Shown: positions 18,001-50,828 of the stretch, piece after piece | Layout: every line of letters starts with the position of its first letter | Numbering within the stretch: the stretch's first letter is position 1 | Virus record (IMG/VR): IMGVR_UViG_3300007734_000761 | Coordinates: 96,001-160,000 of that record | Direction: 5' to 3' (one strand) | DNA from: a virus | DNA length: 64,000 nt | Notes under the pieces: generated by a model | The model's input: the letters and a program-made list of their open reading frames with translations, nothing else | Told to the model about the DNA's origin: nothing | The model's database searches: none | Position numbers and translations under genes: made by a program

Positions 18001-21000
18001 CACTAGAACCCGATGAACCTGAAGTTCCTGAACTTCCTGATGAACCTGATGTGCCGCTTGAACCGCTAGTACCTGATGAACCTGATGTTCCTGATGAGCC
18101 ACTAGTTCCTGAAGAACCGCTTGAACCTGAGGTGCCACTTGAACCACTAGATCCTGAAGTGCCAGATGAACCTGAAGAGCCTGAAGTACCAGATGAACCT
18201 GACGTTCCAGATGAACCTGAAGTTCCAGATGTACCATTTACACCACTTATACCTGATGTACCACTAGATCCTGAAGATCCTGAAGTACCTGATGAACCTG
18301 AAGAACCTGATGTTCCTGAAGAACCTGAGGTTCCTGAAGAACCGCTTGAGCCAGAGGAACCTGAAGATCCGCTTGTTCCACTTGAACCTGAAGACCCAGA
18401 TGTTCCTGATGAACCTGAACTTCCTGAAGTGCCACTTGAACCAGATGTTCCGGATGAACCACTTGTACCACTTGAACCTGAAGAACCTGAGGTTCCAGAT
18501 GAACCTGATGATCCTGAAGTGCCACTACTTCCACTAGTTCCTGAAGAGCCTGAAGTACCAGATGATCCTGAAGATCCTGAAGTTCCACTTGAACCTGAAG
18601 AACCTGAGGTGCCACTTGAACCTGAAGAACCTGAGGTACCACTTGAACCAGAAGTTCCGCTTGAGCCACTAGTACCTGACGAACCGCTAGTGCCTGATGT
18701 ACCATCCACACCACTTATACCTGAAGTACCTGAGCTACCTGAAGTTCCGGATGAACCACTTGAACCAGAAGTTCCGGATGAACCTGAAGTACCACTAGAG
18801 CCTGATGTTCCTGATGAACCACTTGAACCACTTGTTCCGGATGATCCGGAAGTGCCTGATGAACCACTAGTACCTGACGATCCGCTTGAACCAGACGTTC
18901 CTGATGAACCACTTGAACCAGAAGTTCCTGAAGAACCGCTAGTTCCACTTGATCCTGAAGTGCCACTTGAACCTGAAGATCCTGATGTTCCTGATGAACC
19001 ATTTGTTCCACTAGAACCAGATGATCCTGATGTGCCAGATGAACCTGAACTACCACTTGTTCCACTTGAACCTGAAGAACCTGAAGTTCCAGATGAACCT
19101 GATGAGCCACTGGTTCCTGAAGAACCAGAAGTTCCGCTTGAGCCACTAGTACCTGATGTACCGTCAACTCCACTTATACCTGAAGTACCTGAGCTACCGC
19201 TCGTACCTGATGAACCACTTGAGCCAGATGTACCACTAGATCCTGAAGAACCTGATGTTCCACTAGAACCGCTAGTTCCAGATGAGCCTGATGTACCTGA
19301 ACTTCCACTAGTTCCTGATGAACCACTTGAACCACTTGAACCAGAAGTTCCTGAAGAACCACTTGTTCCACTTGAACCACTTGTTCCTGATGAACCTGAC
19401 GTTCCAGATGAACCAGATGTCCCTGAACTTCCTGAAGAACCTGATGTTCCACTTGAACCTGAAGTACCAGATGAACCTGAACTTCCACTAGTTCCTGAAG
19501 AACCAGAAGATCCTGAAGTACCTGATGAACCTGACGTTCCAGATGAACCTGACGTTCCAGATGAACCTGAGCTACCTGCGGTTCCTGAAGAACCACTTGT
19601 CCCAGATGAACCAGAAGTACCTGACGTACCATCAACTCCACTTATACCTGAAGTGCCGCTTGAACCTGAAGTACCAGATGAACCTGAACTTCCGCTAGTT
19701 CCTGATGAACCACTTGAGCCAGATGTACCAGAAGAACCGCTTGTTCCACTTGAACCTGATGTTCCTGAAGAACCTGATGAACCCGAGGTACCTGAACTGC
19801 CACTAGTACCTGATGAACCTGAAGTGCCAGATGAACCTGATGAACCTGAAGTTCCTGAAGAACCTGAGCTGCCTGATGTGCCAGATGAACCTGAGGTTCC
19901 TGAAGAACCACTAGAACCAGACGTTCCTGAGCTGCCTGATGTACCACTAGAACCGCTAGTGCCTGATGAACCTGAAGATCCTGAAGTGCCTGATGAGCCA
20001 CTTGAACCACTTGTACCACTTGAACCTGAAGATCCTGAAGTACCTGATGAACCAGAGGTGCCACTTGAGCCGCTAGTTCCGGATGAACCAGAAGTACCTG
20101 ACGTGCCATCTACTCCACTTATACCTGAAGTACCTGAGCTGCCTGAACTACCTGATGTGCCTGAACTACCAGAGCTGCCTGATGTGCCTGAACTGCCGCT
20201 TGAACCAGATGTACCTGATGAACCACTAGTACCTGAACTACCTGACGTACCACTTGAGCCAGAAGATCCTGAAGTACCAGAACTACCTGACGAACCACTA
20301 GTCCCACTTGAACCTGAACTTCCACTTGTTCCTGATGAACCTGAACTTCCTGACGTACCACTTGAGCCAGAAGTGCCAGAACTACCTGATGTTCCTGATG
20401 AACCACTTGAGCCAGATGTACCTGATGTGCCATCTACTCCACTTATACCTGAAGTACCACTACTTCCTGAGGAACCAGAAGTACCTGATGAACCACTTGT
20501 TCCTGATGAACCTGAAGTGCCACTTGATCCACTAGAACCTGATGTTCCTGAAGAACCTGACGTACCACTTGAGCCGCTTGAACCACTTGTTCCACTTGAA
20601 CCTGATGAACCTGAAGTACCACTAGAACCAGATGTTCCACTACTACCACTTGTACCATCAATCCCAGAAGTACCTGATGAACCACTTGTGCCTGAACTAC
20701 CTGATGTTCCTGATGTTCCGTTTATACCTGAAATTCCAGAAGTTCCTGAGCTGCCACTTGAACCTGAAGTACCACTAGAACCAGAACTACCTGATGTTCC
20801 TGAACTTCCTGAAGAACCTGAGGTTCCACTACTACCACTTGTACCTGATGATCCTGAACTACCTGATGTTCCTGAACTGCCGCTCGTTCCTGATGAACCT
20901 GATGTACCTGAAGATCCTGAAGTGCCTGATGAGCCTGAAGATCCTGAAGTACCGGAACTACCTGAAGTGCCACTTGAACCTGATGTACCACTTGAACCAC

Positions 21001-22489
21001 TAGTGCCTGAGGATCCTGAAGTACCTGATGAGCCACTAGAACCAGAAGTTCCTGAACTACCTGAAGTTCCTGATGAACCTGATGAACCATCAACTCCACT
21101 TAAACCTGAAGTACCCGAAGTACCAGATGAGCCTGATGAGCCACTAGTACCTGATGATCCACTTGTTCCTGAAGAACCTGAACTACCTGACGTGCCACTT
21201 GAGCCAGATGTTCCCGAACTTCCACTTGAACCACTTGTACCTGATGAACCTGAGCTTCCTGAAGTACCAGACGAACCTGATGTTCCTGAACTTCCGCTAG
21301 TTCCACTTGAACCTGAACTTCCACTAGTTCCTGAAGAACCGCTTGAGCCAGATGTTCCCGAACTTCCACTAGTTCCTGAAGAACCGCTTGAGCCAGATGT
21401 ACCTGATGAACCACTTGTTCCACTACTTCCTGAAGTGCCAGATGAGCCTGAGCTACCTGAAGTACCAGATGAACCACTTGTTCCTGAGCTTCCGCTTGTA
21501 CCGGATGAACCTGATGAACCGCTAGTTCCACTTGAACCTGAACTTCCGCTAGTTCCTGAAGAACCACTTGAGCCAGATGTACCTGACGAACCGCTTGTTC
21601 CTGAAGAACCACTTGTTCCACTTGAACCAGATGAACCAGATGTTCCTGAGCTTCCACTTGTTCCACTTGAACCTGAAGTACCTGAAGAACCACTTGAACC
21701 TGAAGTACCTGAAGAACCACTTGAGCCAGATGTGCCTGATGAACCGCTAGTTCCTGATGAACCAGATGTTCCACTTGTTCCGCTTGAACCTGATGTTCCT
21801 GAAGTGCCAGATGAACCGCTAGTACCTGATGAACCACTAGAACCTGATGTTCCACTTGAACCACTTGTACCTGATGAACCAGATGTGCCTGATGAACCTG
21901 AGCTGCCACTTGTACCAGATGAGCCAGATGTTCCTGATGAACCTGACGTGCCTGAACTACCCGAAGTGCCAGAAGAACCAGATGTACCATTTGTACCTGA
22001 AGTACCGTTTGTGCCAGATGTTCCACTAGTTCCTGAAGTTCCTGAACTACCACTAGTTCCTGAGGTTCCTGAACTGCCACTAGTACCTGATGTTCCACTT
22101 GTGCCAGATGTACTAAAATCAGCTATTGGAGCATATGTAAATTGTCCAGAACTAGTATCATATGTTATAAAATAACCTGATGAAGAGTTTTCACTTACTC
22201 CTAAAACTATAAAAGGATTTGAACCTGAAATTAATAATGATCCAGTAATTACAGCTGAACCTGAAAACGGAAATCCTGCTCCTCCACTACCTGAAGAAGC
22301 TATTCCATAACTAACTAATCCTGTTGCTGGATCATATGTTAAATTATATGAGGCTGAAAGATCATTTTCTACTCCAATAAGTGTTAATGGGTTTGAGCCT
22401 GAAATTATTACACTCTCACTAATGCTACCTGTAATAGATAAATCATTAGATAAATACCACCCTAACTGTTCTGGTCTTACTCTTGCCAT
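12095..22489 (-). CDS. Giant 3464-aa Ser/Gly/Thr-repeat virion fibre protein
   Basis: Short unique N-terminus, about 3100 aa of G-S-S/G-T-S triplets, then a C-terminal fibre-type region (NYVLTATG...GEANLTFDG; KNFDIIHP...LEGPE.GVYVRG...IELP.YW..LV). Confidence 0.85.
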   Translation of the reverse strand: MARVRPEQLGWYLSNDLSITGSISESVIISGSNPLTLIGVENDLSASYNLTYDPATGLVSYGIASSGSGGAGFPFSGSAVITGSLLISGSNPFIVLGVSENSSSGYFITYDTSSGQFTYAPIADFSTSGTSGTSGTSGSSGTSGTSGSSGTSGTSGTSGTNGTSGTNGTSGSSGTSGSSGTSGSSGTSGSSGTSGSSGSSGTSGSSGTSGSSGTSGSSGSSGTSGSSGTSGTSGSSGTSGTSGSSGTSGSSGTSGSSGSSGTSGSSGSSGTSGSSGTSGSSGTSGSSGSSGTSGSSGTSGSSGTSGSSGSSGTSGSSGSSGTSGSSGSSGTSGSSGTSGSSGTSGSSGSSGTSGSSGTSGSSGTSGSSGSSGTSGSSGTSGSSGSSGTSGSSGSSGTSGSSGTSGSSGTSGSSGSSGTSGSSGSSGTSGSSGTSGSSGSSGTSGSSGTSGSSGSSGTSGTSGLSGVDGSSGSSGTSGSSGTSGSSGSSGTSGSSGTSGSSGTSGSSGTSGSSGTSGSSGSSGTSGSSGTSGSSGTSGSSGTSGSSGSSGTSGSSGTSGSSGSSGTSGSSGSSGTSGSSGSSGTSGISGINGTSGTSGSSGTSGSSGTSGIDGTSGSSGTSGSSGTSGSSGSSGTSGSSGSSGTSGSSGTSGSSGSSGTSGSSGTSGSSGTSGSSGSSGTSGISGVDGTSGTSGSSGSSGTSGSSGTSGSSGTSGSSGSSGTSGSSGSSGTSGSSGSSGTSGSSGSSGTSGSSGTSGSSGTSGSSGSSGTSGSSGSSGTSGSSGSSGTSGISGVDGTSGTSGSSGTSGSSGTSGSSGTSGSSGSSGTSGSSGSSGTSGSSGSSGTSGSSGTSGSSGTSGSSGSSGTSGSSGTSGSSGSSGTSGSSGSSGTSGSSGTSGSSGTSGSSGSSGTSGSSGTSGSSGTSGSSGSSGTSGSSGSSGTSGSSGTSGISGVDGTSGTSGSSGTSGSSGTAGSSGSSGTSGSSGTSGSSGTSGSSGSSGTSGSSGSSGTSGSSGTSGSSGSSGTSGSSGTSGSSGTSGSSGTSGSSGTSGSSGSSGSSGTSGSSGTSGSSGTSGSSGTSGSSGSSGTSGSSGSSGTSGSSGTSGISGVDGTSGTSGSSGTSGSSGTSGSSGSSGTSGSSGSSGTSGSSGSSGTSGSSGSSGTNGSSGTSGSSGSSGTSGSSGTSGSSGTSGSSGSSGTSGSSGSSGTSGSSGTSGSSGTSGSSGSSGTSGSSGTSGSSGTSGSSGSSGTSGSSGTSGISGVDGTSGTSGSSGTSGSSGTSGSSGTSGSSGSSGTSGSSGSSGTSGSSGSSGTSGSSGTSGSSGTSGSSGSSGTSGSSGSSGTSGSSGTSGSSGTSGSSGSSGTSGSSGSSGTSGSSGSSGSSGSSGTSGSSGTSGSSGSSGTSGSSGSSGTSGISGVNGTSGTSGSSGTSGSSGTSGSSGSSGTSGSSGSSGTSGSSGSSGTSGSSGTSGSSGTSGSSGTSGSSGSSGTSGSSGSSGTSGSSGTSGSSGTSGSSGSSGTSGSSGSSGTSGSSGTSGSSGTSGSSGTSGSSGSSGTSGSSGSSGTSGSSGSSGTSGISGVDGTSGTSGSSGTSGSSGTSGSSGSSGTSGSSGTSGSSGTSGSSGSSGTSGSSGTSGSSGSSGTSGSSGTSGSSGTSGSSGSSGTSGSSGTSGSSGSSGTSGSSGSSGTSGSSGTSGSSGSSGTSGSSGSSGTSGSSGTSGSSGTSGISGVNGTSGTSGSSGSSGTSGSSGTSGSSGTSGSSGTSGSSGSSGTSGSSGSSGTSGSSGTSGSSGSSGTSGSSGTSGSSGSSGTSGSSGSSGTSGSSGSSGTSGSSGTSGISGVNGTSGTSGSSGTSGSSGSSGTSGSSGTSGSSGSSGTSGSSGTSGSSGSSGTSGSSGTSGSSGTSGSSGSSGTSGSSGSSGTSGSSGTSGSSGTSGSSGSSGTSGSSGSSGTSGSSGTSGSSGTSGSSGSSGTSGSSGSSGTSGSSGTSGSSGTSGSSGSSGTSGSSGTSGSSGTSGISGVNGTSGTSGSSGTSGSSGTSGSSGSSGTSGSSGSSGTSGSSGSSGTSGSSGSSGTSGSSGSSGTSGSSGTSGSSGTSGSSGTSGSSGSSGTSGSSGSSGTSGSSGTSGSSGTSGSSGTSGSSGSSGTSGSSGSSGTSGSSGTSGISGVNGTSGTSGSSGTSGSSGSSGTSGSSGTSGSSGSSGTSGSSGSSGTSGSSGTSGSSGSSGTSGTSGSSGTSGSSGTSGSSGTSGSSGSSGTSGSSGSSGTSGSSGSSGTSGSSGSSGTSGISGVNGTSGTSGSSGTSGSSGSSGTSGSSGSSGTSGSSGTSGSSGTSGSSGTSGSSGSSGTSGSSGTSGSSGTSGSSGSSGTSGSSGSSGTSGSSGTSGSSGTSGSSGTSGSSGSSGTSGSSGSSGTSGISGVNGTSGTSGSSGSSGTSGSSGTSGSSGSSGTSGSSGSSGTSGSSGTSGSSGTSGSSGSSGTSGSSGSSGTSGSSGSSGTSGSSGSSGTSGSSGTSGSSGTSGSSGSSGTSGSSGSSGTSGSSGTSGSSGSSGTSGSSGTSGSSGTSGSSGTSGSSGTSGISGVNGTSGTSGSSGTSGSSGTSGSSGTSGSSGSSGTSGSSGSSGTSGSSGTSGSSGTSGSSGSSGTSGSSGTSGSSGSSGTSGSSGSSGTSGSSGTSGSSGTSGSSGSSGTSGSSGSSGTSGSSGSSGTSGSSGTSGSSGTSGSSGSSGTSGSSGSSGTSGISGVNGTSGTSGSSGTSGSSGSSGTSGSSGSSGTSGSSGSSGTSGSSGSSGTSGSSGTSGSSGSSGTSGSSGSSGTSGSSGTSGSSGSSGTSGSSGSSGNSGASGTSGTSGSSGTSGSSGTSGSSGSSGTSGSSGSSGTSGSSGTSGSSGTSGSSGSSGTSGSSGSSGTSGSSGTSGSSGTSGSSGSSGTSGSSGSSGTSGSSGSSGTSGISGVNGTSGTSGSSGSSGTSGSSGSSGTSGSSGSSGTSGSSGSSGTSGSSGNSGTSGSSGTSGSSGTSGSSGSSGTSGSSGSSGTSGSSGSSGTSGSSGTSGSSGTSGSSGSSGTSGSSGSSGTSGSSGTSGSSGSSGTSGSSGSSGTSGSSGSSGTSGSSGTSGISGVNSTSGTSGSSGSSGTSGSSGSSGTSGSSGSSGTSGSSGSSGTSGSSGSSGSSGTSGSSGTSGSSGSSGTSGSSGSSGTSGSSGSSGTSGSSGSSGTSGASGASGTSGTSGSSGTSGSSGSSGTSGINGTSGSSGTSGSSGSSGTSGTTTITNNTDNYVLTATGTSTINGEANLTFDGSTLNLNSGANLNLAGGSIDTNGGAIDTGGGNLDLGAGSINPGGAVVGGVLNFDIINGNIKNFDIIHPTKKEPWRLRYSVLEGPEIGVYVRGRLTNNNTIELPYYWTDLVHEDSITVTLTSIGKPQNLYVISANPEKVTIGIEEGNIDCYYVVYGERKDVDKLITEYIRE
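12696..22112 (-). repeat. ~9.4-kb degenerate 9-nt coding tandem repeat (GSS/GTS) with periodic GISGV(N/D)G punctuation
   Basis: Directly visible. Spacings between punctuation marks are all multiples of 9 nt. Confidence 0.95.
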
Positions 22490-30033: not shown

Positions 30034-30663
30034 TTATTTTATGCAACAAACTCCCGTTTGATTACAAATAATATCTGTAATCAGTGAGTTAATTTTTGAG
30101 TATTGGTTAGATATTTGTTGAGTGTATTGTTTACCTTCAGCTAAACTTACTGGTTTCATGTAAGCTCCATGTGTACTTGGTGTACTTACAAAATCCCAAC
30201 ATACTAAATCAAAATCATCTTGTACTTCTACAGTATTTTCGCCTAATTGTTTAACACTACCCATTCCTCTTGAACTAATTCCTACAGTAATGTTATTTAA
30301 CAATAAATCTTTTAAAATATTTCCACTAGGTGTATTAAGAATTTCAATACGGCCAAATAAATCATCACCTTCCCATCGTAATTGTTTAATATTGTGACAA
30401 ACATTTTTTAAACTAATAACAGAAGACTCTGGGTGATCTAATTCACCCAAAGCTCTGTTTTGGGCAATCGGGCCTGCAATGTATTTTTCTACTTCTCTAT
30501 GGAGAATTGCTTTAGGATAAACACGACCGTTTTCATTTTTGGCATCTGCACGCTGTACAATACCTTCTACCACTAAATTTTTATTAGGGCTCATTTTAGC
30601 CTCATTAAGAGACTGAGGTGTTGGCTTGAATGCCAAATATTCTATTAAAACTTGTTTAGTCAT
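30034..30663 (-). CDS. gp21: Prohead core protease (T4 gp21-like); likely start MTKQVLIEY at 30663
   Basis: N.NGRVYP, ALGELDHP, TPSGNIL, GISSRGMGSV and DFVSTPSTHGA motifs. Confidence 0.95.
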   Translation of the reverse strand: MTKQVLIEYLAFKPTPQSLNEAKMSPNKNLVVEGIVQRADAKNENGRVYPKAILHREVEKYIAGPIAQNRALGELDHPESSVISLKNVCHNIKQLRWEGDDLFGRIEILNTPSGNILKDLLLNNITVGISSRGMGSVKQLGENTVEVQDDFDLVCWDFVSTPSTHGAYMKPVSLAEGKQYTQQISNQYSKINSLITDIICNQTGVCCIK

Positions 30664-31705
30664 TTGGATCGTTTGGGTTATCAAACTTAGCATTAAAACC
30701 TTGATCTGTTAATTTTTTAAGTGTACTCATATCTCCAGGTTTTACAGATACTATTCCTCTAGCCATTTCATGTACTAAAGTTAAAATTTGATTTTTAGTA
30801 GTAGGAGTTAACTTAATTTTTCTAGAGTCTTTTACGTTTACATCTTCGTTTATGTCTTCTTCAAAACCACTTAATGTTCCTCTATTGTAAAATCCTGGGC
30901 CGGGTTTATCTGCTGTTTCTTGATTACTAATTGTGTAATCCATTCCTTCTTCTACACCCTTACTAAGAAGTCTTTCTAAAGCACTAGCTAAATCTTTTTT
31001 ACCTTCTTCTTTTAACTTAGCTACTAACTGTTTTAATTTTGCTAATTGTTGTGCAGGAATGCCTTTAGACTCACTCATTGGAGCATCATTAATATTTTTA
31101 ATAGCTTTCTTTACTTTATCTTGAATTTCTTCGTCTTTATCGCGTTTTTCAGCGTATTGTCTTAGTAATTTAATGACTTGATTTTTCTTAGCTGTATCTC
31201 CTTTAATAGCATCTCTAACACTTTTAATAAGTTCTCCGTTATTATCCATAGCGGCTAAATAAGATGCTGGATTAAGTGTATAAACATCATATCCTTCATT
31301 TAATTTAGCTGGTTCCATTCCAGAAGACTTATATTTACCTTTAACTTCGTCTTTAAGACCATATGGAGCGTCTTGTTTATCAGCTTTAGGCATTTTACCA
31401 TCTTTTTTTATGGCTTCAGCACTTTTAGCAGTATTTTTTACTCCAGGTTTTTTACCAGATCCATATTCACCCACCATTTTAATGGTTTCGTTTACTAACA
31501 TGTTAGTGTAAAAATTAGGATCTTTTTTAAGATTTTTCAAAACTTTACTTTGGGCTTCTTTGATAGTATCAACGTTAATGGTTTTACCAGAAGTTGTTAA
31601 TTCATAATCCATCCCATTTTCAAATTCGTAAATATTGACTTTGTCTATTTCACGAACTACAGGAGTGATGTATTTATCAAAGTAAGATTTATTAGGATTA
31701 CTCAT
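30656..31705 (-). CDS. Hypothetical head-associated protein with several L/I-x-E sites
   Basis: FENGMDYEL and V.KNL.KDP.FY motifs; in the head module; LVNE, LNE, MSE and INE linkers. Confidence 0.6.
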   Translation of the reverse strand: MSNPNKSYFDKYITPVVREIDKVNIYEFENGMDYELTTSGKTINVDTIKEAQSKVLKNLKKDPNFYTNMLVNETIKMVGEYGSGKKPGVKNTAKSAEAIKKDGKMPKADKQDAPYGLKDEVKGKYKSSGMEPAKLNEGYDVYTLNPASYLAAMDNNGELIKSVRDAIKGDTAKKNQVIKLLRQYAEKRDKDEEIQDKVKKAIKNINDAPMSESKGIPAQQLAKLKQLVAKLKEEGKKDLASALERLLSKGVEEGMDYTISNQETADKPGPGFYNRGTLSGFEEDINEDVNVKDSRKIKLTPTTKNQILTLVHEMARGIVSVKPGDMSTLKKLTDQGFNAKFDNPNDPND

Positions 31706-40438: not shown

Positions 40439-40693
40439 ATAAATTTTTAATTTAAGTTTACCATTTCCTTTAATAGCTCTATGCCATTTGTGTTTAGGAA
40501 TGTAAATTGGTTTATTTAATGAAGTTGGTAATTCGTTGTCTAATTGAATTTTCCAATTTGTTTCACCAATTATTTCAATTGTTCTGTCTTCATTATCACG
40601 ATGCCACATCAATTCTATAGGATCAATGTTTTCATCAAATTCCCTAATAATATATTTGTCAGTAATTTCTAAATCTTTATACGGCTTTATCAT
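40430..40693 (-). CDS. Small cupin-like protein
   Basis: WHRD.EDR...W..QLD...IP...WHR.IKG pattern. Confidence 0.65.
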   Translation of the reverse strand: MIKPYKDLEITDKYIIREFDENIDPIELMWHRDNEDRTIEIIGETNWKIQLDNELPTSLNKPIYIPKHKWHRAIKGNGKLKLKIYLV

Positions 40694-41102
40694 CTGTAAG
40701 AGGACCGCCTACAACCCAAGCATTACAAGTTCGAGCTGCAGCACATTTAAACTTTAAAAACCTACAGTATCCTAATTGACCTGCTTTAATAACATCAAAT
40801 GGATCTTCTGTACCTTCATCACTACCTATTCCTTTAGCTATGCAATCTAATGTTTTTGTTGTAATATCAAATGCAGCACAGTTACCACAACGAGAAGATT
40901 TAGCTTCTTCTATAGAATCAAGTTTCCACATGTCTACTTTATCCTGCCAAAATTTATCGTTTGGTTCATTTGGGTTTAGAGGACCATATCCATACTCATT
41001 AATTGCTTTTTGTCTGTTTTGAAGATTTAATTCAATATTTTGAGTGGGGGCAGGACATTTACTTATTTCTGCTTCGTTTAATATATTAATTAGTTTTATC
41101 AT
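40677..41102 (-). CDS. Tagged (MIKLINILNE) Cys-rich putative internal head protein
   Basis: N-terminal tag; CP.PTQ, YGP.NP, CGNCAAF and GYC..LKFKCAA.RTC.AW. Confidence 0.7.
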   Translation of the reverse strand: MIKLINILNEAEISKCPAPTQNIELNLQNRQKAINEYGYGPLNPNEPNDKFWQDKVDMWKLDSIEEAKSSRCGNCAAFDITTKTLDCIAKGIGSDEGTEDPFDVIKAGQLGYCRFLKFKCAAARTCNAWVVGGPLTDDKAV

Positions 41103-41419
41103 TTTTTATCTTTAATTAACAATTCACCTAAAACTTCTAAACGACCAACTTCTCTTTGAAATTCAATTTGAGACATGTCTAAAGAGATTTTTTTATAAGT
41201 TTCCTCGTATTCTTTTTTTGCTTTTTCTAAATCTAATTTACCTTCACTTGCCTTTTTGTAATAGGGTAATTTAACTTTAAAGTGGTGCCAAGTTAAAAGC
41301 GCTAAACCTCCTTTTTTGTGAGCATTATCAGCAATTTTTTTAGCTCCACTCATACGAGTTTGACTAAAATCTTCAAATTGGTTTTTTGCTTCTACTAGTA
41401 TGTCTTTAAATTTAATCAT
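41099..41419 (-). CDS. Tagged (MIKFKDILVE) putative internal head protein
   Basis: N-terminal tag; ATGA overlap with neighbours. Confidence 0.7.
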   Translation of the reverse strand: MIKFKDILVEAKNQFEDFSQTRMSGAKKIADNAHKKGGLALLTWHHFKVKLPYYKKASEGKLDLEKAKKEYEETYKKISLDMSQIEFQREVGRLEVLGELLIKDKK

Positions 41420-41775
41420 TTTTTTAATCGTTGAGTTTTTCTTTTAGATGCTTCTTTTCTGGCAGTGATGTATGTTAGTCCTTTTTTTAAACGAGCTTTT
41501 ACTTCAGGATTTTTGGCTTTACTATATGCTGCTCTTACACGTTGATGAATTAAGTTAATAATCTGTGATTGGCGAGCATGGCTTTTTGCTTTAAAAGATG
41601 ATTTAGACAATGTATTTTTAATGTCTTGAACAGTTTTAAATTTAACACCTACAGTATCTGTTGGATCTTCATCTGTGTATAAACGGCGACTTGATCCTTT
41701 TGGCTTTTTACCTGTGCCTACTTTAGGATCAGCCTCATTTAAAGATTCTTTTAGAAGATCTACTAGTTTAATCAT
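41416..41775 (-). CDS. Tagged (MIKLVDLLKE) basic putative internal head protein
   Basis: Tag followed by DPKVGTGKKPKGS.RRLYTDEDP.DT. Confidence 0.7.
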   Translation of the reverse strand: MIKLVDLLKESLNEADPKVGTGKKPKGSSRRLYTDEDPTDTVGVKFKTVQDIKNTLSKSSFKAKSHARQSQIINLIHQRVRAAYSKAKNPEVKARLKKGLTYITARKEASKRKTQRLKK

Positions 41776-42500
41776 TTTGTTTTACCCCATGTTTTACCTT
41801 TACCTGGTCTTTTACATTGAGAAGGTGTAGGTCTACATGATGGATATTTTGATCTTACCTCACCTTTTTTACGGCCACAAGGTTTACATTTTCCATCACG
41901 ACAAGTATTACAATCTACCCATCCTCCTGTTTTACCTGGTGCTCCTTTACGTTTAAACCAAGTTCTTAATGTTTCTTTTTTAGCTTCATCTAATTCAGAT
42001 TTTCTATTATTAATATAAGTTTCAATATCTTCGGCTTTATAGCCTAATAGTTGACCTATTCTTCTAGCATCTTCATCAGTAGCTTTATATGACAAATAAC
42101 CATTGTATTTTTCTGCTATGTCTTTTAACTCATTAGCTTCATTTTCTGCTCCTTTTACATAAAAAACATAAGCTCTATGGGGATTTGAAGGAACTTTAAT
42201 AGTACCTAAATCAAACTTTTTTACAATATCCCAAAAATTTTTTTCAGGAAAATCCATGCCATCTAAAACCATAAAACCTAATTTTCGTTTTCCATCTAAA
42301 ACAGTTTTTATAGAACCTTTATCCTCGTATGCTTCTTCAGCACTAATTTCTTCTTTTAGTCCCTTCCAAATATTTCCTTTACGACATCTAACAATAGCAC
42401 CAGACTTATATGCTGAAGGTTTACTGTAACGACGATCTGCTATGCGTTTACAGCGATCTTCAGTAAGTACTTCAAGTAATATGTTAGTAAGTTTAATCAT
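41772..42500 (-). CDS. Tagged (MIKLTNILLE) three-module putative internal head protein
   Basis: Modules (PSAY.SGA.V.CRK; central domain; LR.WF...GWVDC...CGR...YP.CRP) separated by LKEE and LDE. Confidence 0.7.
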   Translation of the reverse strand: MIKLTNILLEVLTEDRCKRIADRRYSKPSAYKSGAIVRCRKGNIWKGLKEEISAEEAYEDKGSIKTVLDGKRKLGFMVLDGMDFPEKNFWDIVKKFDLGTIKVPSNPHRAYVFYVKGAENEANELKDIAEKYNGYLSYKATDEDARRIGQLLGYKAEDIETYINNRKSELDEAKKETLRTWFKRKGAPGKTGGWVDCNTCRDGKCKPCGRKKGEVRSKYPSCRPTPSQCKRPGKGKTWGKTK

Positions 42501-43375
42501 ACAGAAATTGAAGTTGATATGTCACCTGTAGGTATTAACTTACCACCCATATTTTCTATTTTTTGTTTCATTTCTTCAAAGTTTTTTGGTATTACACTTA
42601 CTTTAAAACTTTTTGGGTTTTCTTGAACAAATTTAAAAAAATCATTTAATGTAGGAAATAAACCTGTTATATTAGGACGATTTTTATAATCATATTTTTT
42701 TAGTTCAACAGCTTCTCCGGGTATTTTTAAGTACTGTTTTTTTTCTAAAAATGGTTTTAAAAATCCATATTTAGTTGCTCTAAATACTGTTATTTTTTTT
42801 AATTTACCATTAAAATAAAAAATTCCTAATTCCTTTTTTATTCCATTTTCTACACTTCCATATTGTACTGCTAGTCTTCTTTGTGCTTCTCTAGGTAATT
42901 CTATAGTAAAATTTTCTGTTACCGAAAAATCTATTTTATTTACGTTTTTATCTATTTTTATTTTTCTTAAGGCTTTAGATAAATCAATGCCTTGAGTCAA
43001 ATCAGAAGTAGGAGCTGATGAAACTGTAAACTCATCATCTATGTCTACTCCTAAGTCTTTTGCTTTAATAGCTGCACCTTCTACAGGCATTATAATGCCA
43101 TTCTGCAATAAAGCTTTTATAAACGTACTAGCGTTACCTGTTCCTTTAATGTTGAATACTTTTTTAACATCATCTACATTGAAATGATTTATGTCTTCTA
43201 AAGATTCCATTTTCAAAACAATGTCTTGAAATCTAGGTCCTGAGCCTCTAACATTAGATATTTTACTTTCCCAGTCATCTGTTAAAGTGTAGAACTTCTT
43301 TATCTGTGGCATTTCAGCCAAATGTCTTTTTACAGCTTCTACTAGTATTGCTTTTATTAAATTTCTTTTTTCCAT
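42497..43375 (-). CDS. Hypothetical protein with an N-terminal LIKAILVE/LAE tag variant
   Basis: ORF translationally coupled within the tagged array. Confidence 0.6.
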   Translation of the reverse strand: MEKRNLIKAILVEAVKRHLAEMPQIKKFYTLTDDWESKISNVRGSGPRFQDIVLKMESLEDINHFNVDDVKKVFNIKGTGNASTFIKALLQNGIIMPVEGAAIKAKDLGVDIDDEFTVSSAPTSDLTQGIDLSKALRKIKIDKNVNKIDFSVTENFTIELPREAQRRLAVQYGSVENGIKKELGIFYFNGKLKKITVFRATKYGFLKPFLEKKQYLKIPGEAVELKKYDYKNRPNITGLFPTLNDFFKFVQENPKSFKVSVIPKNFEEMKQKIENMGGKLIPTGDISTSISV

Positions 43376-43376
43376 A

Positions 43377-44009
43377 TTACCAAAATCCTGAGTATGATGA
43401 TTTTAATCCTAATAATTTAGCGTAGCGAGGTAAACGACAACTCCAGTAACTTGCTTTTGTTCTGTCTTTTTTATTAGGACAATCGTGACGTTTTGAAAAA
43501 GCAGCTCTTGCTTTAGAGTTATTAATTTTAGCTGACAAACCAGTAGTGTCACCAAATGATACTTTTTTAACTCCACCACCTGGTTTTCTTACATAAACAT
43601 AGAATTTTTTAGATCCACCACGTTTTGGTTTACCAATTGGAGGTATTTTTTTCTTTTTATCTGCTTCTTCTAAGTCTACTTCTTCTAATAGTAAGTCTAT
43701 TGGAACTAATTTACCATTGTAAAAATCAAACGTACCAATTTCTGTTTCTTCTAAAAGTTGCTTGTCAGCTCCATCGAAAGTTATTTGTTTATTTTCATGT
43801 AACCATCTAGCTTCTTGCCATAAGTCAAGAAAAGATTCACTGCCATATCTAAATGTATTTTCAGTAATAGGAAGTTTTTGATAAACATGATATAACATGT
43901 TAGGACTAATTTTTTCTGGGTTAGTCGATTCTGTTAGTAAAGGAGCTTTAGGTCTGGCGCAAGTTGGACATCCTGATCCTTCTAACAATATGTCTTTTAA
44001 CTTAATCAT
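43377..44009 (-). CDS. Tagged (MIKLKDILLE) two-module putative internal head protein
   Basis: FRYGS..F..L..EAR module, then KKFYVYV...VSFG...F..RH.C..K....YWSC module after LEE. Confidence 0.7.
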   Translation of the reverse strand: MIKLKDILLEGSGCPTCARPKAPLLTESTNPEKISPNMLYHVYQKLPITENTFRYGSESFLDLWQEARWLHENKQITFDGADKQLLEETEIGTFDFYNGKLVPIDLLLEEVDLEEADKKKKIPPIGKPKRGGSKKFYVYVRKPGGGVKKVSFGDTTGLSAKINNSKARAAFSKRHDCPNKKDRTKASYWSCRLPRYAKLLGLKSSYSGFW

Positions 44010-47087: not shown

Positions 47088-47678
47088 TTATGATAAATAT
47101 GTATCAATCTTAGCTCTTTGGTCAGCAATCCATTGTTTAGTTTCTTTTATTTGTTCTGGAGTTAAACCTCTACCATCCCAACTTTCTACTTCTCCAGTTT
47201 CACTCATAACTTTTTCAAAACCATTAGAAACAAAATCATCAAATTCTTTTTCGGTTTGATCTAAAATGTGTAAATGATTTTTAAAATACATATTCTTCGC
47301 GTATTCATCAAAGATACCGGCCAGTTTCATGTTAGTTTCTTCTTTAGTCACGCACTTTGGACATTTATGCGCAAGCTTATAAATATGTTTTACATACTCA
47401 CTTTGTCTAGCTAAAGGTTCACTACATTGAGGACAAGTAAGAGGCATAATATTTGTGTCTTTAAACTTAGCTAACTTACTTACAGTACGTTTTACACCAT
47501 TTTTAATAGTCCACGTTTTACCATTTTCATCCCAAACGTCTCCTTCTTGTCTTTTTACTTGAGATTCATAACCTGCCTGAATTGTAGTTCTATCTCCAGT
47601 TTTTTTCGTAATAATATTACGCATTCGCTGAACTTCACGTTCAGTAAACTGTCTATTTAGTAAAGTTTCTTTACTCAT
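47088..47678 (-). CDS. Hypothetical protein with two CxxC pairs (zinc ribbon)
   Basis: EGDVW.E.GKTWTIKNG, CPQC and CPKC motifs. Confidence 0.7.
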   Translation of the reverse strand: MSKETLLNRQFTEREVQRMRNIITKKTGDRTTIQAGYESQVKRQEGDVWDENGKTWTIKNGVKRTVSKLAKFKDTNIMPLTCPQCSEPLARQSEYVKHIYKLAHKCPKCVTKEETNMKLAGIFDEYAKNMYFKNHLHILDQTEKEFDDFVSNGFEKVMSETGEVESWDGRGLTPEQIKETKQWIADQRAKIDTYLS

Positions 47679-49977
47679 ATTTAAATTTATATAACTTTTT
47701 TATTGATTCTCTTGAGTCTTCTGGATTGTTTTTTATTCCTGTTCCACCAGCTTGAATAAACTGACTAACGTTTGAACCCACATCATCAATCAACATATAA
47801 CCTGGTTTTGCTTCTGTGTGTTTGTCTTTAGCTTGTTTGTATACTCTTCTGTCTTGAGGAATATTTAAATGTTTGTCTACCCATTCATTTTTTCCCTTTT
47901 TAGCATCTCCGTTTGGATCTAAACCTGGTGATGATAATATCCATACTTCTATACCTTTTTCATCAGCTATTTTCATAACGGCCTTATAAAGTTCTTCTCC
48001 ACCTGGATTCCAAGGCATTGTTGACCAAAACTTTACTTTGCCTTTATTAATTATATCCCAAGCTTTATTAGCACCATATTTTCCAATGTATGATTTAAAA
48101 TCTAAATTTTCTTTGTTGTATTTTTTAAATTGATCATCAAAACCAGCTAATACTCCATCTAAATCAAAGTAGATTCTTGTAATAGGAGGATTTGTTTCTT
48201 TAGATTCATTTAACATTCCAATATTATAAATGCTAGGATTTTGTTTTCCATAGTCTCTCATTAATATACCGGCAATAGCATTGGCATCATTTTCATGTTC
48301 ACTACCAGTTTCGCCTGAATCTGGTTGTAATAAGCCCATTTCGTTTTGTTTAGCATGAACTAACTCATGAGCTAACGTGCGAAGAACATCAACTATATTT
48401 CTGTTACTAGGATTGACAAATATATGATGTTTTGATGGAACATATGCTCCAAAACTTGGTTGATCTTCACCATATTCATATCTAATTTCAAACGAAGGAG
48501 GATTATGAATTTGAAGTTCGTTGCAAGCATAAGTCATGAATTTTTCAAAAAGTGAATTTTTATCAACAGACTCATTTAAAGATAAAGTTTTATCTATAAA
48601 AGAATTTTTTAGATTATTAAGTTTTTCTAAATAACCTGTGTTTCTTAAATTTTTAAATGCTAAGTTTTCTAATGAATATTCACCATCTTCATCTAATCCT
48701 GTTTGTCTAAAGTTTTTAAGACGTTCTTTAATTTTATTTGTAAGTTCTATCGCTTTTTCAGGATTATTTTTACCTATTTTTTCTAATTTATCTATTTGTT
48801 GTTTAAATAACTTTGCTTTCTTTTCAATTTCTTCGTCAGGAATATTTATTTCTACAAAAGACGGTTTACGTAACCATTTATCATTCATTAAGCTGTATTC
48901 ACCTCTATATTCAGGATGGTCTTTATTATCTTGAATGTAAACTTCAATATTTTGTTTGCCTAATTTTAAATCATGAACCCTATTCCAGTTAACCTTTGCT
49001 TCATCAAAGTATTTTTTTAACAATTCAGGATTTTCAAATTTGTCAAAATCAACAACAATGTGTAAATCTATGTCAGATGTTGGAGTATAATTATAATTTA
49101 CACTACTTCCTGTTAAAAGAATATCTTCAAACGGTTCAGGTATTTCTAATCCTTCCCAAAAATAATTAGCTACTTTTAATAATAACTCTTTTACTTTTGG
49201 GTCTACTTTATCATCAGTATCAAAAATTAAAGGATTTAATTTATTTTGACTCTTATATTCTAACCAAACCCACTGAGGTTGTTTTTTAGGGTTTGGTTGA
49301 GTTCCTTCTTGTAAACTAGCTGGTTCAGGAAAATTAATTCCTAAAACTCTCTGAATGTCATCTAAGTATCCTTTTTGTATTACTGCTTCAGGAAATAAAC
49401 TTTTAAAGTAGTTATATGTAGTATTATAATCGTTTAATGCTTTTTTATCTCCAGGATTATTTTTTACTTGAAGATATCTTTGTCTTAATTCAGCTATTGT
49501 AGCTCTAAAGTCAGTTCCACTAACTCTATCACCATCACTATCTACAAATTGATCATCTACAATTTCTTCTTGAACTCTATCACCAAAAGCCTCTTTTAAA
49601 CCTTTAAAATATTCTAAATCATCTGCTTCTTTACCAGCAGCAGCAACATAAGCTTCTCTATTTAAGTCATCTCCAAACCATCTATAAAGATCTCTAATAG
49701 GAGATTTAGTCTTAGCAATTTCAACTTTAATTTTTGGATTTGGTTGGGCTTTTAAATAAATGTCCCAAATTGCTTTACTTTGTTCTGCTGTAATTCCACC
49801 TCTTTTACCGTGACCTATTAATACATTTACTTGAGTAATATAAGGTTTTGCTGCTAATTGTTGAGCAGCGGCAAGATGACCTTTATGTGGTGGTTTAAAA
49901 CCTCCAGGATACCAACAAATTTCAGGTTTTTTGGCTACTTCTTCTCCTATTAATTTTCCTATTTCTGCTACGTTCAT
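47671..49977 (-). CDS. Four-domain polyprotein: HIGH cytidylyltransferase-like, Pol-beta nucleotidyltransferase, HExxH metallopeptidase-like and HAD 5'(3')-nucleotidase-like
   Basis: YPGGFKPPHKGH; LLTGSSVNYNY...SDIDLHIVVD; RTLAHELVH.KQ...E..ANA.AG; IYFDLDGVLA.F...ILSS...K..W...LIDD. Linkers are LQE, LNE and LNE. Confidence 0.8.
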   Translation of the reverse strand: MNVAEIGKLIGEEVAKKPEICWYPGGFKPPHKGHLAAAQQLAAKPYITQVNVLIGHGKRGGITAEQSKAIWDIYLKAQPNPKIKVEIAKTKSPIRDLYRWFGDDLNREAYVAAAGKEADDLEYFKGLKEAFGDRVQEEIVDDQFVDSDGDRVSGTDFRATIAELRQRYLQVKNNPGDKKALNDYNTTYNYFKSLFPEAVIQKGYLDDIQRVLGINFPEPASLQEGTQPNPKKQPQWVWLEYKSQNKLNPLIFDTDDKVDPKVKELLLKVANYFWEGLEIPEPFEDILLTGSSVNYNYTPTSDIDLHIVVDFDKFENPELLKKYFDEAKVNWNRVHDLKLGKQNIEVYIQDNKDHPEYRGEYSLMNDKWLRKPSFVEINIPDEEIEKKAKLFKQQIDKLEKIGKNNPEKAIELTNKIKERLKNFRQTGLDEDGEYSLENLAFKNLRNTGYLEKLNNLKNSFIDKTLSLNESVDKNSLFEKFMTYACNELQIHNPPSFEIRYEYGEDQPSFGAYVPSKHHIFVNPSNRNIVDVLRTLAHELVHAKQNEMGLLQPDSGETGSEHENDANAIAGILMRDYGKQNPSIYNIGMLNESKETNPPITRIYFDLDGVLAGFDDQFKKYNKENLDFKSYIGKYGANKAWDIINKGKVKFWSTMPWNPGGEELYKAVMKIADEKGIEVWILSSPGLDPNGDAKKGKNEWVDKHLNIPQDRRVYKQAKDKHTEAKPGYMLIDDVGSNVSQFIQAGGTGIKNNPEDSRESIKKLYKFKYE

Positions 49978-50816
49978 GGTTTAGCAAATGTTTTTACTGC
50001 TCCTACTGCTTCTCTATAATTTAGAGGTTTAATAATTTTTAAAAACTTTTCAACAGTTTTAAATTGATCCTTAATATTTTTAACAGCATCACTAAATTTC
50101 TTCTCTGCTGCTTTTTTCTTTTCTTCTTTTGCCTTTAAAGTTTCAGGATCTGGTAAGTCTTTTGATGTTTTTACATCAGAAGGTTGGGGTTTACTGAAAC
50201 TAGATCTGTATTTTTCTGGATCTGTTTGTATTAACTGTTTAAAGTAATCTTCTAATTCACCTGACTTTAGTACTTTTTCAAATTTATTAACATTTGCTTT
50301 TTCAGCAGGTGATAATTCTGTTTGAACAACTAAATACTCAATACCAGGAATGCTTTTATAGCTACTTATTTGGTTATATACTTTAGCCCAATTATTTAAC
50401 ACAACTTCTTTAGGTAATTTTCTACTTCTATTAAAATTTCTTAAAAAGCTAACAATAGGACTTCCGTAAAGTGTAATAACCATTACTTTATAACCATTTT
50501 GTTGTGCGTTACTCACAATTTCTGCTGTTTCTTTAAAATTTTGTCCTGTAGTATCATAAATAAAATTTTGTTTTTTACTAATAGCATCAGGAATAGCCTT
50601 AGTTCTTATAATAATATTATTTTTACTTATGTTAGGTCTATCAGGATCATCTTCTGGATTAAAAGTATCAGGATTGAATACTCTAAAATCTGAAGGTATA
50701 TTTCTTACTAAATCATTTATTAAAGTTGATTTACCCATTCCTGCTGCTCCTGATAGAATTATTGCTTTTGGTTGTGTGCCAAAAACTTCTAATAACAAAG
50801 ACTGCAGATTAATCAT
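49974..50816 (-). CDS. Tagged (MINLQSLLLE) zeta-toxin/AAA_33-like P-loop kinase
   Basis: PKAIILSGAAGMGKST, FNPD, FIYDTTG, GYKV and RN..R.R.LP motifs. Confidence 0.7.
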   Translation of the reverse strand: MINLQSLLLEVFGTQPKAIILSGAAGMGKSTLINDLVRNIPSDFRVFNPDTFNPEDDPDRPNISKNNIIIRTKAIPDAISKKQNFIYDTTGQNFKETAEIVSNAQQNGYKVMVITLYGSPIVSFLRNFNRSRKLPKEVVLNNWAKVYNQISSYKSIPGIEYLVVQTELSPAEKANVNKFEKVLKSGELEDYFKQLIQTDPEKYRSSFSKPQPSDVKTSKDLPDPETLKAKEEKKKAAEKKFSDAVKNIKDQFKTVEKFLKIIKPLNYREAVGAVKTFAKP

Positions 50817-50820
50817 ACAT

Positions 50821-50828
50821 ATAAATAT
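50821..50828 (-). promoter_or_regulatory. ATATTTAT putative late promoter (start of the tagged array)
   Basis: 4 nt before the ATG at 50816. Confidence 0.65.

Follow-up and report, generated by a model that had tools for sequence, protein, structure and literature searches.

A putative capsid-cargo polyprotein with prohead-protease-type sites at its domain joints in a T4-superfamily phage

Introduction

The prohead protease gp21 of phage T4 cleaves after glutamate in the motif L/I-x-E, and in the 10-residue capsid-targeting sequence (CTS) of the T4 internal proteins positions 4 and 7 serve for targeting while positions 8 and 10 direct processing; an aspartate at P1 blocks the processing in T4 (PMC9026906). 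This report deals with a gene in a 64,000-nucleotide stretch of viral DNA (the window), which comprises bases 96001-160000 of the 176,311-bp IMG/VR virus record IMGVR_UViG_3300007734_000761, rated complete. The genome is that of a T4-superfamily phage and its closest cultured relative is Flavobacterium phage immuto. At window positions 47671-49977 on the minus strand, an open reading frame (ORF) encodes a 768-residue protein, P0001, in which four enzyme-like domains are joined and a candidate L-x-E cleavage site is present at each joint. P0001 is probably a polyprotein which is packaged in the capsid and cut by the prohead protease, the four enzymes being ejected together with the DNA. We infer this packaging, cleavage and ejection, as well as the targets of the enzymes, from the domain folds, the sites in the linkers, their conservation, the exchange of cassettes in relatives, the S77-family protease and the CTS-like leaders that are described below.

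P0001 is similar to the cargo proteins IPI-III and Alt of T4 in that there is an S77 protease, the candidate cuts are of the L/I-x-E type, a short N-terminal leader ends in the motif and the genes are located outside the head module; the T4 cargo Alt, an ADP-ribosyltransferase, is also enzymatic. However, the T4 cargo consists of single proteins trimmed at their ends, whereas here, as judged from the sequence alone, there are four unrelated, shuffled modules (up to about nine in relatives) with a candidate site at each of the joints. The leader, at 12 residues (13-15 in the wider family), is also longer than the 10 residues of T4.

The polyvalent proteins described by Iyer, Burroughs, Anand, de Souza and Aravind (2017, PMC5512222) also contain unrelated effector domains in one phage polypeptide, including Pol-beta nucleotidyltransferases (NTases) and zincin metallopeptidases (MPTases). 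It is predicted that these proteins accompany the DNA on delivery and come apart into separate units, and the analogy with RNA-virus polyproteins has already been drawn in that paper. As characterized in PMC5512222, such proteins have 2-15 effector-type domains, of which P0001 has four, and an embedded peptidase with its catalytic residues, which P0001 has in HELVH and E562. For a third trait, genomic association with packaging or late genes, the picture is mixed: the P0001 gene adjoins primase and exonuclease genes, yet its operon has the ATATTTAT motif in common with the structural genes. In the available part of that paper, however, the release is credited to the embedded peptidase and no junction motif is defined, while the joints of P0001 match the specificity of a prohead protease acting in trans; in addition, the HxGH NTase and NT5C domains of P0001 were not found among the domains mentioned there, the word 'NMNAT' being absent and 'nucleotidase' occurring once.

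In phiKZ, 201phi2-1 and SPN3US (gp175/gp245), a gp21-related protease cuts many head-internal proteins after the glutamate of a three-residue motif, in some cases at multiple places in one protein (PMC9026906). The motif is S/A/G-x-E in the phiKZ-like phages but L/I-x-E in P0001, and the cleavage is described as the removal of propeptides from head proteins, inner-body proteins included, with chains of recognizable enzymes not mentioned in the available portion of that paper. The cyanophage S-CREM2 has adjacent virion-associated homologues of domains 1 and 2 (ORF154 and ORF156) with N-terminal L-x-E leaders, but these are separate genes and not a fusion, and the accessible text of PMC10665884 makes no mention of leaders, of a protease motif or of the function of ORF156. 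T4 CTS/gp21 processing, the polyvalent-protein concept and the heavy head processing of phiKZ-like phages are known ingredients, and what is new is the combination of concatenated enzymes with a prohead-protease motif per joint, shuffled cassettes and leader-bearing stand-alone forms. No description of such protease-punctuated cargo polyproteins was found in literature searches.

Candidate Cleavage Sites at the Joints of P0001

The ORF, which includes the stop codon in the coordinates given above, is genuine: it is uninterrupted over 768 residues and is intact in more than 100 homologues. An earlier note, made from the sequence alone, had described it as a chain of a HIGH-motif NTase, a Pol-beta-type NTase, an HExxH domain and a HAD domain with a gp21-type site at each boundary, and this description agrees with the present results: the order of the domains is borne out by profile and fold searches, the three motifs are found where they were expected, structure prediction puts them outside the folds, and they are conserved in relatives. 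All features described here are on the minus strand. The first motif, ASLQEG, occupies residues 220-225 (49303-49320) and contains junction 1, L222-Q223-E224 (S-L-Q-E|G, 49306-49314, the bar being the candidate cut). The second, LSLNES, occupies residues 465-470 (48568-48585) with junction 2, L467-N468-E469 (S-L-N-E|S, 48571-48579), and the third, GMLNES, residues 587-592 (48202-48219) with junction 3, L589-N590-E591 (M-L-N-E|S, 48205-48213).

The AlphaFold2 model of P0001 has a mean pLDDT of 77.5 and a pTM of 0.35, the latter of which indicates independent domains arranged like beads on a string. Seven segments have a pLDDT below 50, and three of them lie between domains (224-247, 464-471 and 588-596) and hold one junction motif each, junction 1 opening its linker and junctions 2 and 3 lying within theirs. 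P0001 contains six L-x-E and ten [LI]-x-E motifs in total; the remaining three L-x-E are situated in helices (127 and 476) or in a loop where the motif is not conserved (428). By our estimate, the joint chance that the three junction sites fall in inter-domain disorder is about 1e-3. In an alignment of 25 homologues reaching down to 57% identity, no exchange occurs in S221-L222-Q223-E224 or S466-L467-x-E469, and conservation of L589-x-E591 is 92% or higher, while P2 at junction 2 varies (N/V/T) and P1' varies freely at all three joints. Leucine and glutamate fixed amid varying neighbours are what is to be expected for an L-x-E recognition site, and are unusual in a disordered linker.

The Four Domains

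Domain 1 (residues 13-224, 49306-49941) is an HxGH NTase with a NadD/NMNAT/PPAT-like fold. The recognizable part, residues ~19-215, carries on a Rossmann-like fold the motifs PPHKGH at 29-34 and VSGTDFR at 152-158, which are of the (H/T)xGH and ISxTxxR types. It reaches 14.2 bits with PF01467, below the cutoff of 21, and 11-12 bits with the NCBIfam NadD models, whose cutoffs are 187-214, so that the sequence supports neither membership at the family level nor specificity for the pyridine nucleotide; over the NadD and PPAT models together the scores are 11-15 bits and PPAT scores about equal to NadD. As the nearest structural neighbours of the AlphaFold model, Foldseek gave NadD (5deo, E 8.5e-5) and an archaeal NMNAT (4yp6, TMt 0.63), and the profile of the domain-1 family matched 1f9a in the PDB at 5.4e-6. 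We treat domain 1 as a distinct viral GGFKPPHKGH family whose likeness to NadD, NMNAT and PPAT is at the level of the predicted fold.

Domain 2 (residues 225-469, 48571-49305) is a Pol-beta-type NTase with a helical C-terminal half. Its residues 239-467 score 22.5 bits with PF01909 (cutoff 21) and match phrog_36119 at 7e-43, and TGSS...SDIDLH at residues 289-306, the hG[GS] and DxD catalytic motif, is invariant. Assignment as a CD-NTase, an aminoglycoside NTase or MNT was rejected, since the Foldseek matches to CD-NTases, ANT/AadA and MNT are weak (E >= 4e-3) and no PDB match falls below E 1e-3.

Domain 3 (residues 470-591, 48205-48570) is a minimal gluzincin-like metallopeptidase, that is, a small HExxH (HELVH) zincin at residues 474-585, in which H537-E538-x-x-H541 and E562 are invariant. 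It matches phrog_87 at 2.4e-5, with all Pfam matches under the gathering score. The PDB matches by Foldseek are abylysin (4jiu) and selecase (4qhj), each at a probability of 1.0 and a TMt of ~0.6, and those in BFVD are IrrE-N-like proteins of 122-177 residues (44-45% identity, E 8e-11). Foldseek also matched SprT.

Domain 4 (residues 592-768, 47674-48204) is a HAD-superfamily phosphatase resembling 5'(3')-deoxyribonucleotidases, of the NT5C type. Its residues 595-768 match phrog_2643 at 6e-20 and, by Foldseek, the mouse and human 5'(3')-deoxyribonucleotidases cdN and mdN (2jao, E 4.5e-5) as well as 3bwv (TMt 0.66), while PF06941 gives 18.3 bits and stays under Pfam's threshold of 24.8. HAD motif I, FDLDGV (DxDGV), at 603-608 and motif IV, IDD, at 730-732 are both invariant.

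Single-sequence phmmer of all four domains against the PDB gave no usable match (E >= 0.08). The catalytic signatures of all domains are invariant in the 25 homologues: H34; G290-S291-S292, D302 and D304; H537-E538-H541-E562; D605 and D607; D731-D732. A role of these enzymes in NAD restoration or nucleotide-signal conflict may be proposed from their fold-level resemblance as a reasonable guess, no more. RNA repair had also been raised in the earlier note; a version of it in which a kinase and a HAD phosphatase act in the manner of T4 Pnkp was rejected: the HAD domain matches deoxyribonucleotidases and not Pnkp, and the kinase encoded upstream matches Zeta-toxin/AAA_33 better than polynucleotide kinase.

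Exchange of Cassettes in Relatives

Among 5.8 billion proteins searched, P0001 has 282 homologues, all of which have domains 1-3, while megablast of the gene against a phage collection gave no match. The chains diverge past "...IG(M/V)L(N/K/Q)E", that is, at junction 3, the main swap point for cassettes: they continue directly with NT5C, or with one to five cassettes and then NT5C, or they stop at this point (..IGTLN*, ..IGILNK*). A Zn-ribbon, two ParB-like DGxHR modules and a second zincin are among the cassettes, along with several of no known identity, and relatives reach 1319 residues with about nine modules (relative P0066). Furthermore, a DUF5661 module with its own K-I-E-E joint is present between domains 1 and 2 in some relatives, and the cassette ..NSPKFQG...YGADL(K/N)E follows the zincin in some relatives and precedes the Pol-beta domain in another. 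The extra cassettes of relatives had no BLASTP match in the proteome of this genome and are therefore not separate genes here.

A breakpoint test on the ends of BLAST high-scoring segment pairs (HSPs) was too noisy (186 of 403 observed versus 115 expected) and, because HSPs fragment inside domains, clean insertions in pairwise comparisons of relatives were analysed in its place. Of the 96 contexts, 89 have [L/I/M]-x-E within 12 residues of both ends of the insertion, and the rest are artefacts of alignment extension. We count 13 or more unrelated types of cassette, every one of them ending in [L/I/M]-x-E. Shuffling of domains at L-x-E joints, which the earlier note had suggested looking for in relatives, is thus found.

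In the gene of P0066 (L011:5609-6448) the strongest direct repeat is a 30-nt junction sequence, which recurs at three cassette boundaries with 80-97% identity; therefore, recombination at shared linkers contributes to the shuffling. The repeat reads TTAAATGAA(T/G)CTAAACAATCTAATTTTAATA and is a likely recombination substrate for gain and loss of cassettes. The joints with unrelated flanks (SLQE|G, SLNE|SVD, KIEE|S, LDE|AKE, ITE|ERP, LLE|EKQ and LQE|QVT), however, have only the tripeptide pattern in common, so shared DNA cannot explain them. As a separate observation, two independent metagenome contigs (L007:5765-5770 and L008) have a TAA stop in place of the glutamate codon of junction 3 (..IGVLK*QVTKTSIICDKCGW); a Zn-ribbon cassette runs on in frame past the TAA, and both contigs end ~50 nt later.

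The Prohead Protease, Its Candidate Substrates and Leaders

The enzyme proposed to process P0001 is encoded by the ORF at 30034-30693, a prohead serine protease of the T4 gp21 type (PF03420 Peptidase_S77, 5.7e-31, 108 bits versus a cutoff of 27), which aligns with T4 gp21 through ALGEL(N/D)HP and G(V/I)SSRG(L/M)GS. The protease has sites of its own: S-L-N-E|A-K at residues 28-31, in the style of the joints of P0001, and L-A-E|G near the C-terminus, at the place of I-T-E|S in T4 gp21. The head module is T4-like: besides the portal protein and the protease it has a scaffold-like protein, acidic and with many L-x-E, and a capsid protein of the Gp23 family (1.3e-76), in which I-V-E|TNTTAGATSG aligns beside L-T-E65|AEIGG..AAGQTSG of T4 gp23. 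In addition, a second modular protein of 1537 residues is encoded on the minus strand beyond the window (window-relative 74057-78670). It consists of ~15 modules, each of which opens after (L/M)-x-E with the shared acidic tag xEDEFNVDAPxEW. As this protein has L-x-E joints but no HExxH, it favours a protease acting in trans.

In 13 proteins of the genome [LI]-x-E ends exactly at residue 10, mostly as MIKLxxILxE, in agreement with the T4 CTS rule. A run of unrelated small proteins at 40677-44009 starts with MIKLINILNE, MIKFKDILVE, MIKLVDLLKE, MIKLTNILLE and MIKLKDILLE. Directly upstream of the P0001 gene and translationally coupled to it is the gene of a Zeta-toxin/AAA_33-like P-loop kinase (49974-50816; PF06414, 4.7e-12), which is one of the 13 proteins, has the leader MINLQSLLLE and is a probable co-cargo; the kinase-polyprotein pairing is also kept in the relatives L007, L008 and L011. 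P0001 itself starts with a 12-residue leader, MNVAEIGKLIGE (49942-49977), in which I10-G11-E12 is invariant and which is a candidate capsid-targeting or cleavage leader. It has the form (M)..EIGKxIGE12, an extra helix before the first beta strand, and differs from the MIKLxxILxE of the genome.

A search of 1.84 billion representatives with domain 1 gave 855 relatives (E <= 0.001), and most of the best 150 listed are 500-1500 residues long. Among N-terminal copies of the domain with room for a leader, 82 of 91 have [L/I/M]-x-E 12-30 residues before HxGH (background 24%, p 1.6e-40), with the glutamate mostly at residue 13-15, and the motif is at the corresponding position in 18 of 24 internal copies (p 2e-7), both p-values ignoring kinship among the sequences. 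About 20 copies begin directly at the first strand, and the leader is therefore dispensable for the fold.

Leaders are also present where the domains are encoded alone. Stand-alone Pol-beta homologues start with MIKLRDLVE, MRKFSQLLE (Caulobacter phage Cr30), MNLKTLVE (Maribacter phage Molly) and MISFKQFITE, while those of other lineages are leaderless. In immuto the primase, exonuclease and polyprotein genes are in the same order as here and NT5C is a separate gene, gp087, the product of which starts with MKKVMGNLADLLLE|E (L-L-E); the glutamate of this leader is 14 residues before DxD, and E591 of P0001 is 13 residues before it. Thus, leader and joint appear to be interchangeable across phages. 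The syntenic immuto gp088 (L001:3119-5842, 907 residues), annotated as NMNAT, has a Pol-beta-like domain, an HxGH NTase and then two HExxH modules, with L-A-E 13 residues before the first strand of the HxGH domain.

Virion Association in S-CREM2 and Expression Context

The virion proteome of the T4-like cyanophage S-CREM2 (Table 3 of PMC10665884) contains the adjacent ORF154, called "cytidylyltransferase", with three peptides, ORF155 with five and ORF156 with six. ORF156 is 38.5% identical to residues 239-467 of P0001 (E 3e-44). ORF154 has the leader MKNFSSFLTE|A followed by GRYNPPHKGH, and is matched by the profile of the domain-1 family with an hhalign probability of 94.8% (E 4.9e-8, 160 columns); this deeper family profile was needed, since a shallow whole-protein alignment against gp154 covered only the HxGH motif in hhalign. 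In a cultured relative which uses a gp21-type protease, domains 1 and 2 therefore have homologues, encoded by separate genes, that are associated with the virion.

The promoter-like motif ATATTTAT occurs 58 times on the coding (minus) strand and seven times on the other, 44 of the 58 being within 45 nt upstream of a start codon and often only 5-20 nt from the ATG. It precedes the portal gene, a prohead gene, the gene of the 1537-residue protein and, at 50821-50828, 12 nt upstream of the start, the gene of the kinase which heads the kinase-polyprotein operon; it also precedes genes that we read, from size and position, as tail genes. This distribution fits co-expression of the operon with virion genes. 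No enrichment was seen for the late-promoter consensus of T4, TATAAATA, with 14 copies versus 12.5 expected.

The neighbours of the P0001 gene are those of a primase, a PD-(D/E)xK exonuclease and the P-loop kinase, and this synteny is kept in immuto. Elsewhere in the window, at 12095-22489, a 3464-residue ORF has 42-54% guanine + cytosine (GC) in a genome of ~30% GC, and the opposite strand has an open frame of nearly the same length; this points to a highly repetitive, compositionally biased gene.

Alternative Explanations

Several points weigh against packaging and cutting by the prohead protease. The gene adjoins the primase and exonuclease genes outside the head module, and [LI]-x-E carries little information, occurring 658 times in the proteome. 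Because the sequences in the homologue sets share ancestry, the p-values treat them as more independent than they are. Some junctions have up to 30 nt of near-identical DNA in common, so that recombination linkers may account for some of the conservation of the motif in the variable region. The leader of P0001 (..EIGKLIGE) may instead be a helix that belongs to the structure of the domain-1 family. The S-CREM2 particles were CsCl-purified, and mass spectrometry of such particles can include contaminants. Moreover, the embedded zincin with its intact catalytic residues could do the cutting.

If this last point is taken further, P0001 would be a self-processing polyvalent protein, the joints of which are cut by domain 3 in the head or after injection with the prohead protease uninvolved. 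H537, E538, H541 and E562 are indeed invariant, the fold is like those of the minimal gluzincins abylysin and selecase and of IrrE/SprT-like peptidases, the zincin belongs to the constant core of all relatives, and exactly this role is proposed for MPTase domains by Iyer et al. 2017 (PMC5512222). We consider self-processing unlikely, because the motif is also found in zincin-free proteins of the genome (the 13 leader proteins and the 1537-residue protein) and because the stand-alone homologues, which are separate genes in other T4-like phages, carry leaders. Besides, a gluzincin would be expected, from thermolysin-like enzymes, to be guided mainly by a hydrophobic P1', whereas P1' is variable at the joints. 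Cleavage after glutamate in [L/I]-x-E is, on the other hand, the documented specificity of S77 proteases (PMC9026906). The earlier note's proposal of a gp21-type release of four enzymes is supported in part, with the S77 protease, the disordered and conserved sites, the cassette joints, the CTS-like leaders and the S-CREM2 homologues as indirect evidence in its favour; the zincin may cut instead.

P0001 might also be an uncut, unpackaged multifunctional enzyme of the cytoplasm, encoded next to the replication genes. Its domains would then be joined so as to be expressed together for nucleotide or NAD metabolism, and the joints would be linkers and recombination joints. The primase, exonuclease and kinase neighbours, syntenic with immuto, suit such an enzyme, the thrice-repeated junction DNA of P0066 fits homologous recombination at linkers, and [LI]-x-E is a common tripeptide. 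We doubt this explanation, however, since joints with unrelated flanks have only [L/I]-x-E in common, and linkers are normally the least conserved regions, yet leucine and glutamate are invariant here while their neighbours vary. In addition, the operon has the promoter-like motif of structural genes, and two of the domains have homologues associated with the S-CREM2 virion (PMC10665884). Finally, processing might be partial, with only the leader or some of the joints cut and a two- or three-domain enzyme in the head. T4 Alt is trimmed only at its ends and stays large (PMC9026906); some relatives end exactly at junction 3 or have a stop for its glutamate, which suggests that the first three domains are a functional unit; and junctions 1 and 2 are never swap points of the core domains, save for DUF5661 and one other insert. 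But S-L-x-E at junctions 1 and 2 is as invariant as the motif at junction 3 and both are in disordered linkers, and we regard partial processing as improbable.

Proposed Processing and Its Meaning

According to processing by the prohead protease, which we prefer, P0001 would be transcribed together with the leader-bearing kinase from the ATATTTAT-type promoter motif, as structural genes are, and would be incorporated into the prohead core. The S77 (gp21-type) protease would cut it after glutamate in [L/I]-x-E, at E12, E224, E469 and E591, to give the short leader and four enzymes, namely an NMNAT/NadD-like adenylyltransferase (~24 kDa), a Pol-beta nucleotidyltransferase (~29 kDa), a zincin (~14 kDa) and a deoxyribonucleotidase-like phosphatase (~20 kDa). 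These enzymes would leave the capsid together with the DNA and start to work as soon as infection begins.

On a wider scale, the balance is about even as to whether oceanic T4-superfamily phages use a general "address plus cut" grammar, in which a leader and [L/I]-x-E at each boundary are read by the S77 protease for a changeable injected cocktail. P0001 would then be one allele of a cassette-shuffling locus, and the GGFKPPHKGH family (855 representatives) would be a previously unrecognized capsid-delivered class.

If P0001 is cut as proposed, double-stranded DNA phages would be supplying their capsid cargo by the polyprotein strategy known from RNA viruses, and one late gene would supply several enzymes in a fixed ratio, all of them present in the cell ahead of phage gene expression. 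Injected cargo would be predictable from sequence, namely from an S77 protease, a leader and L-x-E joints, and this would provide a large set of candidate enzymes for host takeover or anti-defence, including NMNAT-like, Pol-beta NTase, zincin, nucleotidase, ParB-like and Zn-ribbon modules. Joint-based exchange of cassettes would be a route to the quick evolution of such cocktails.

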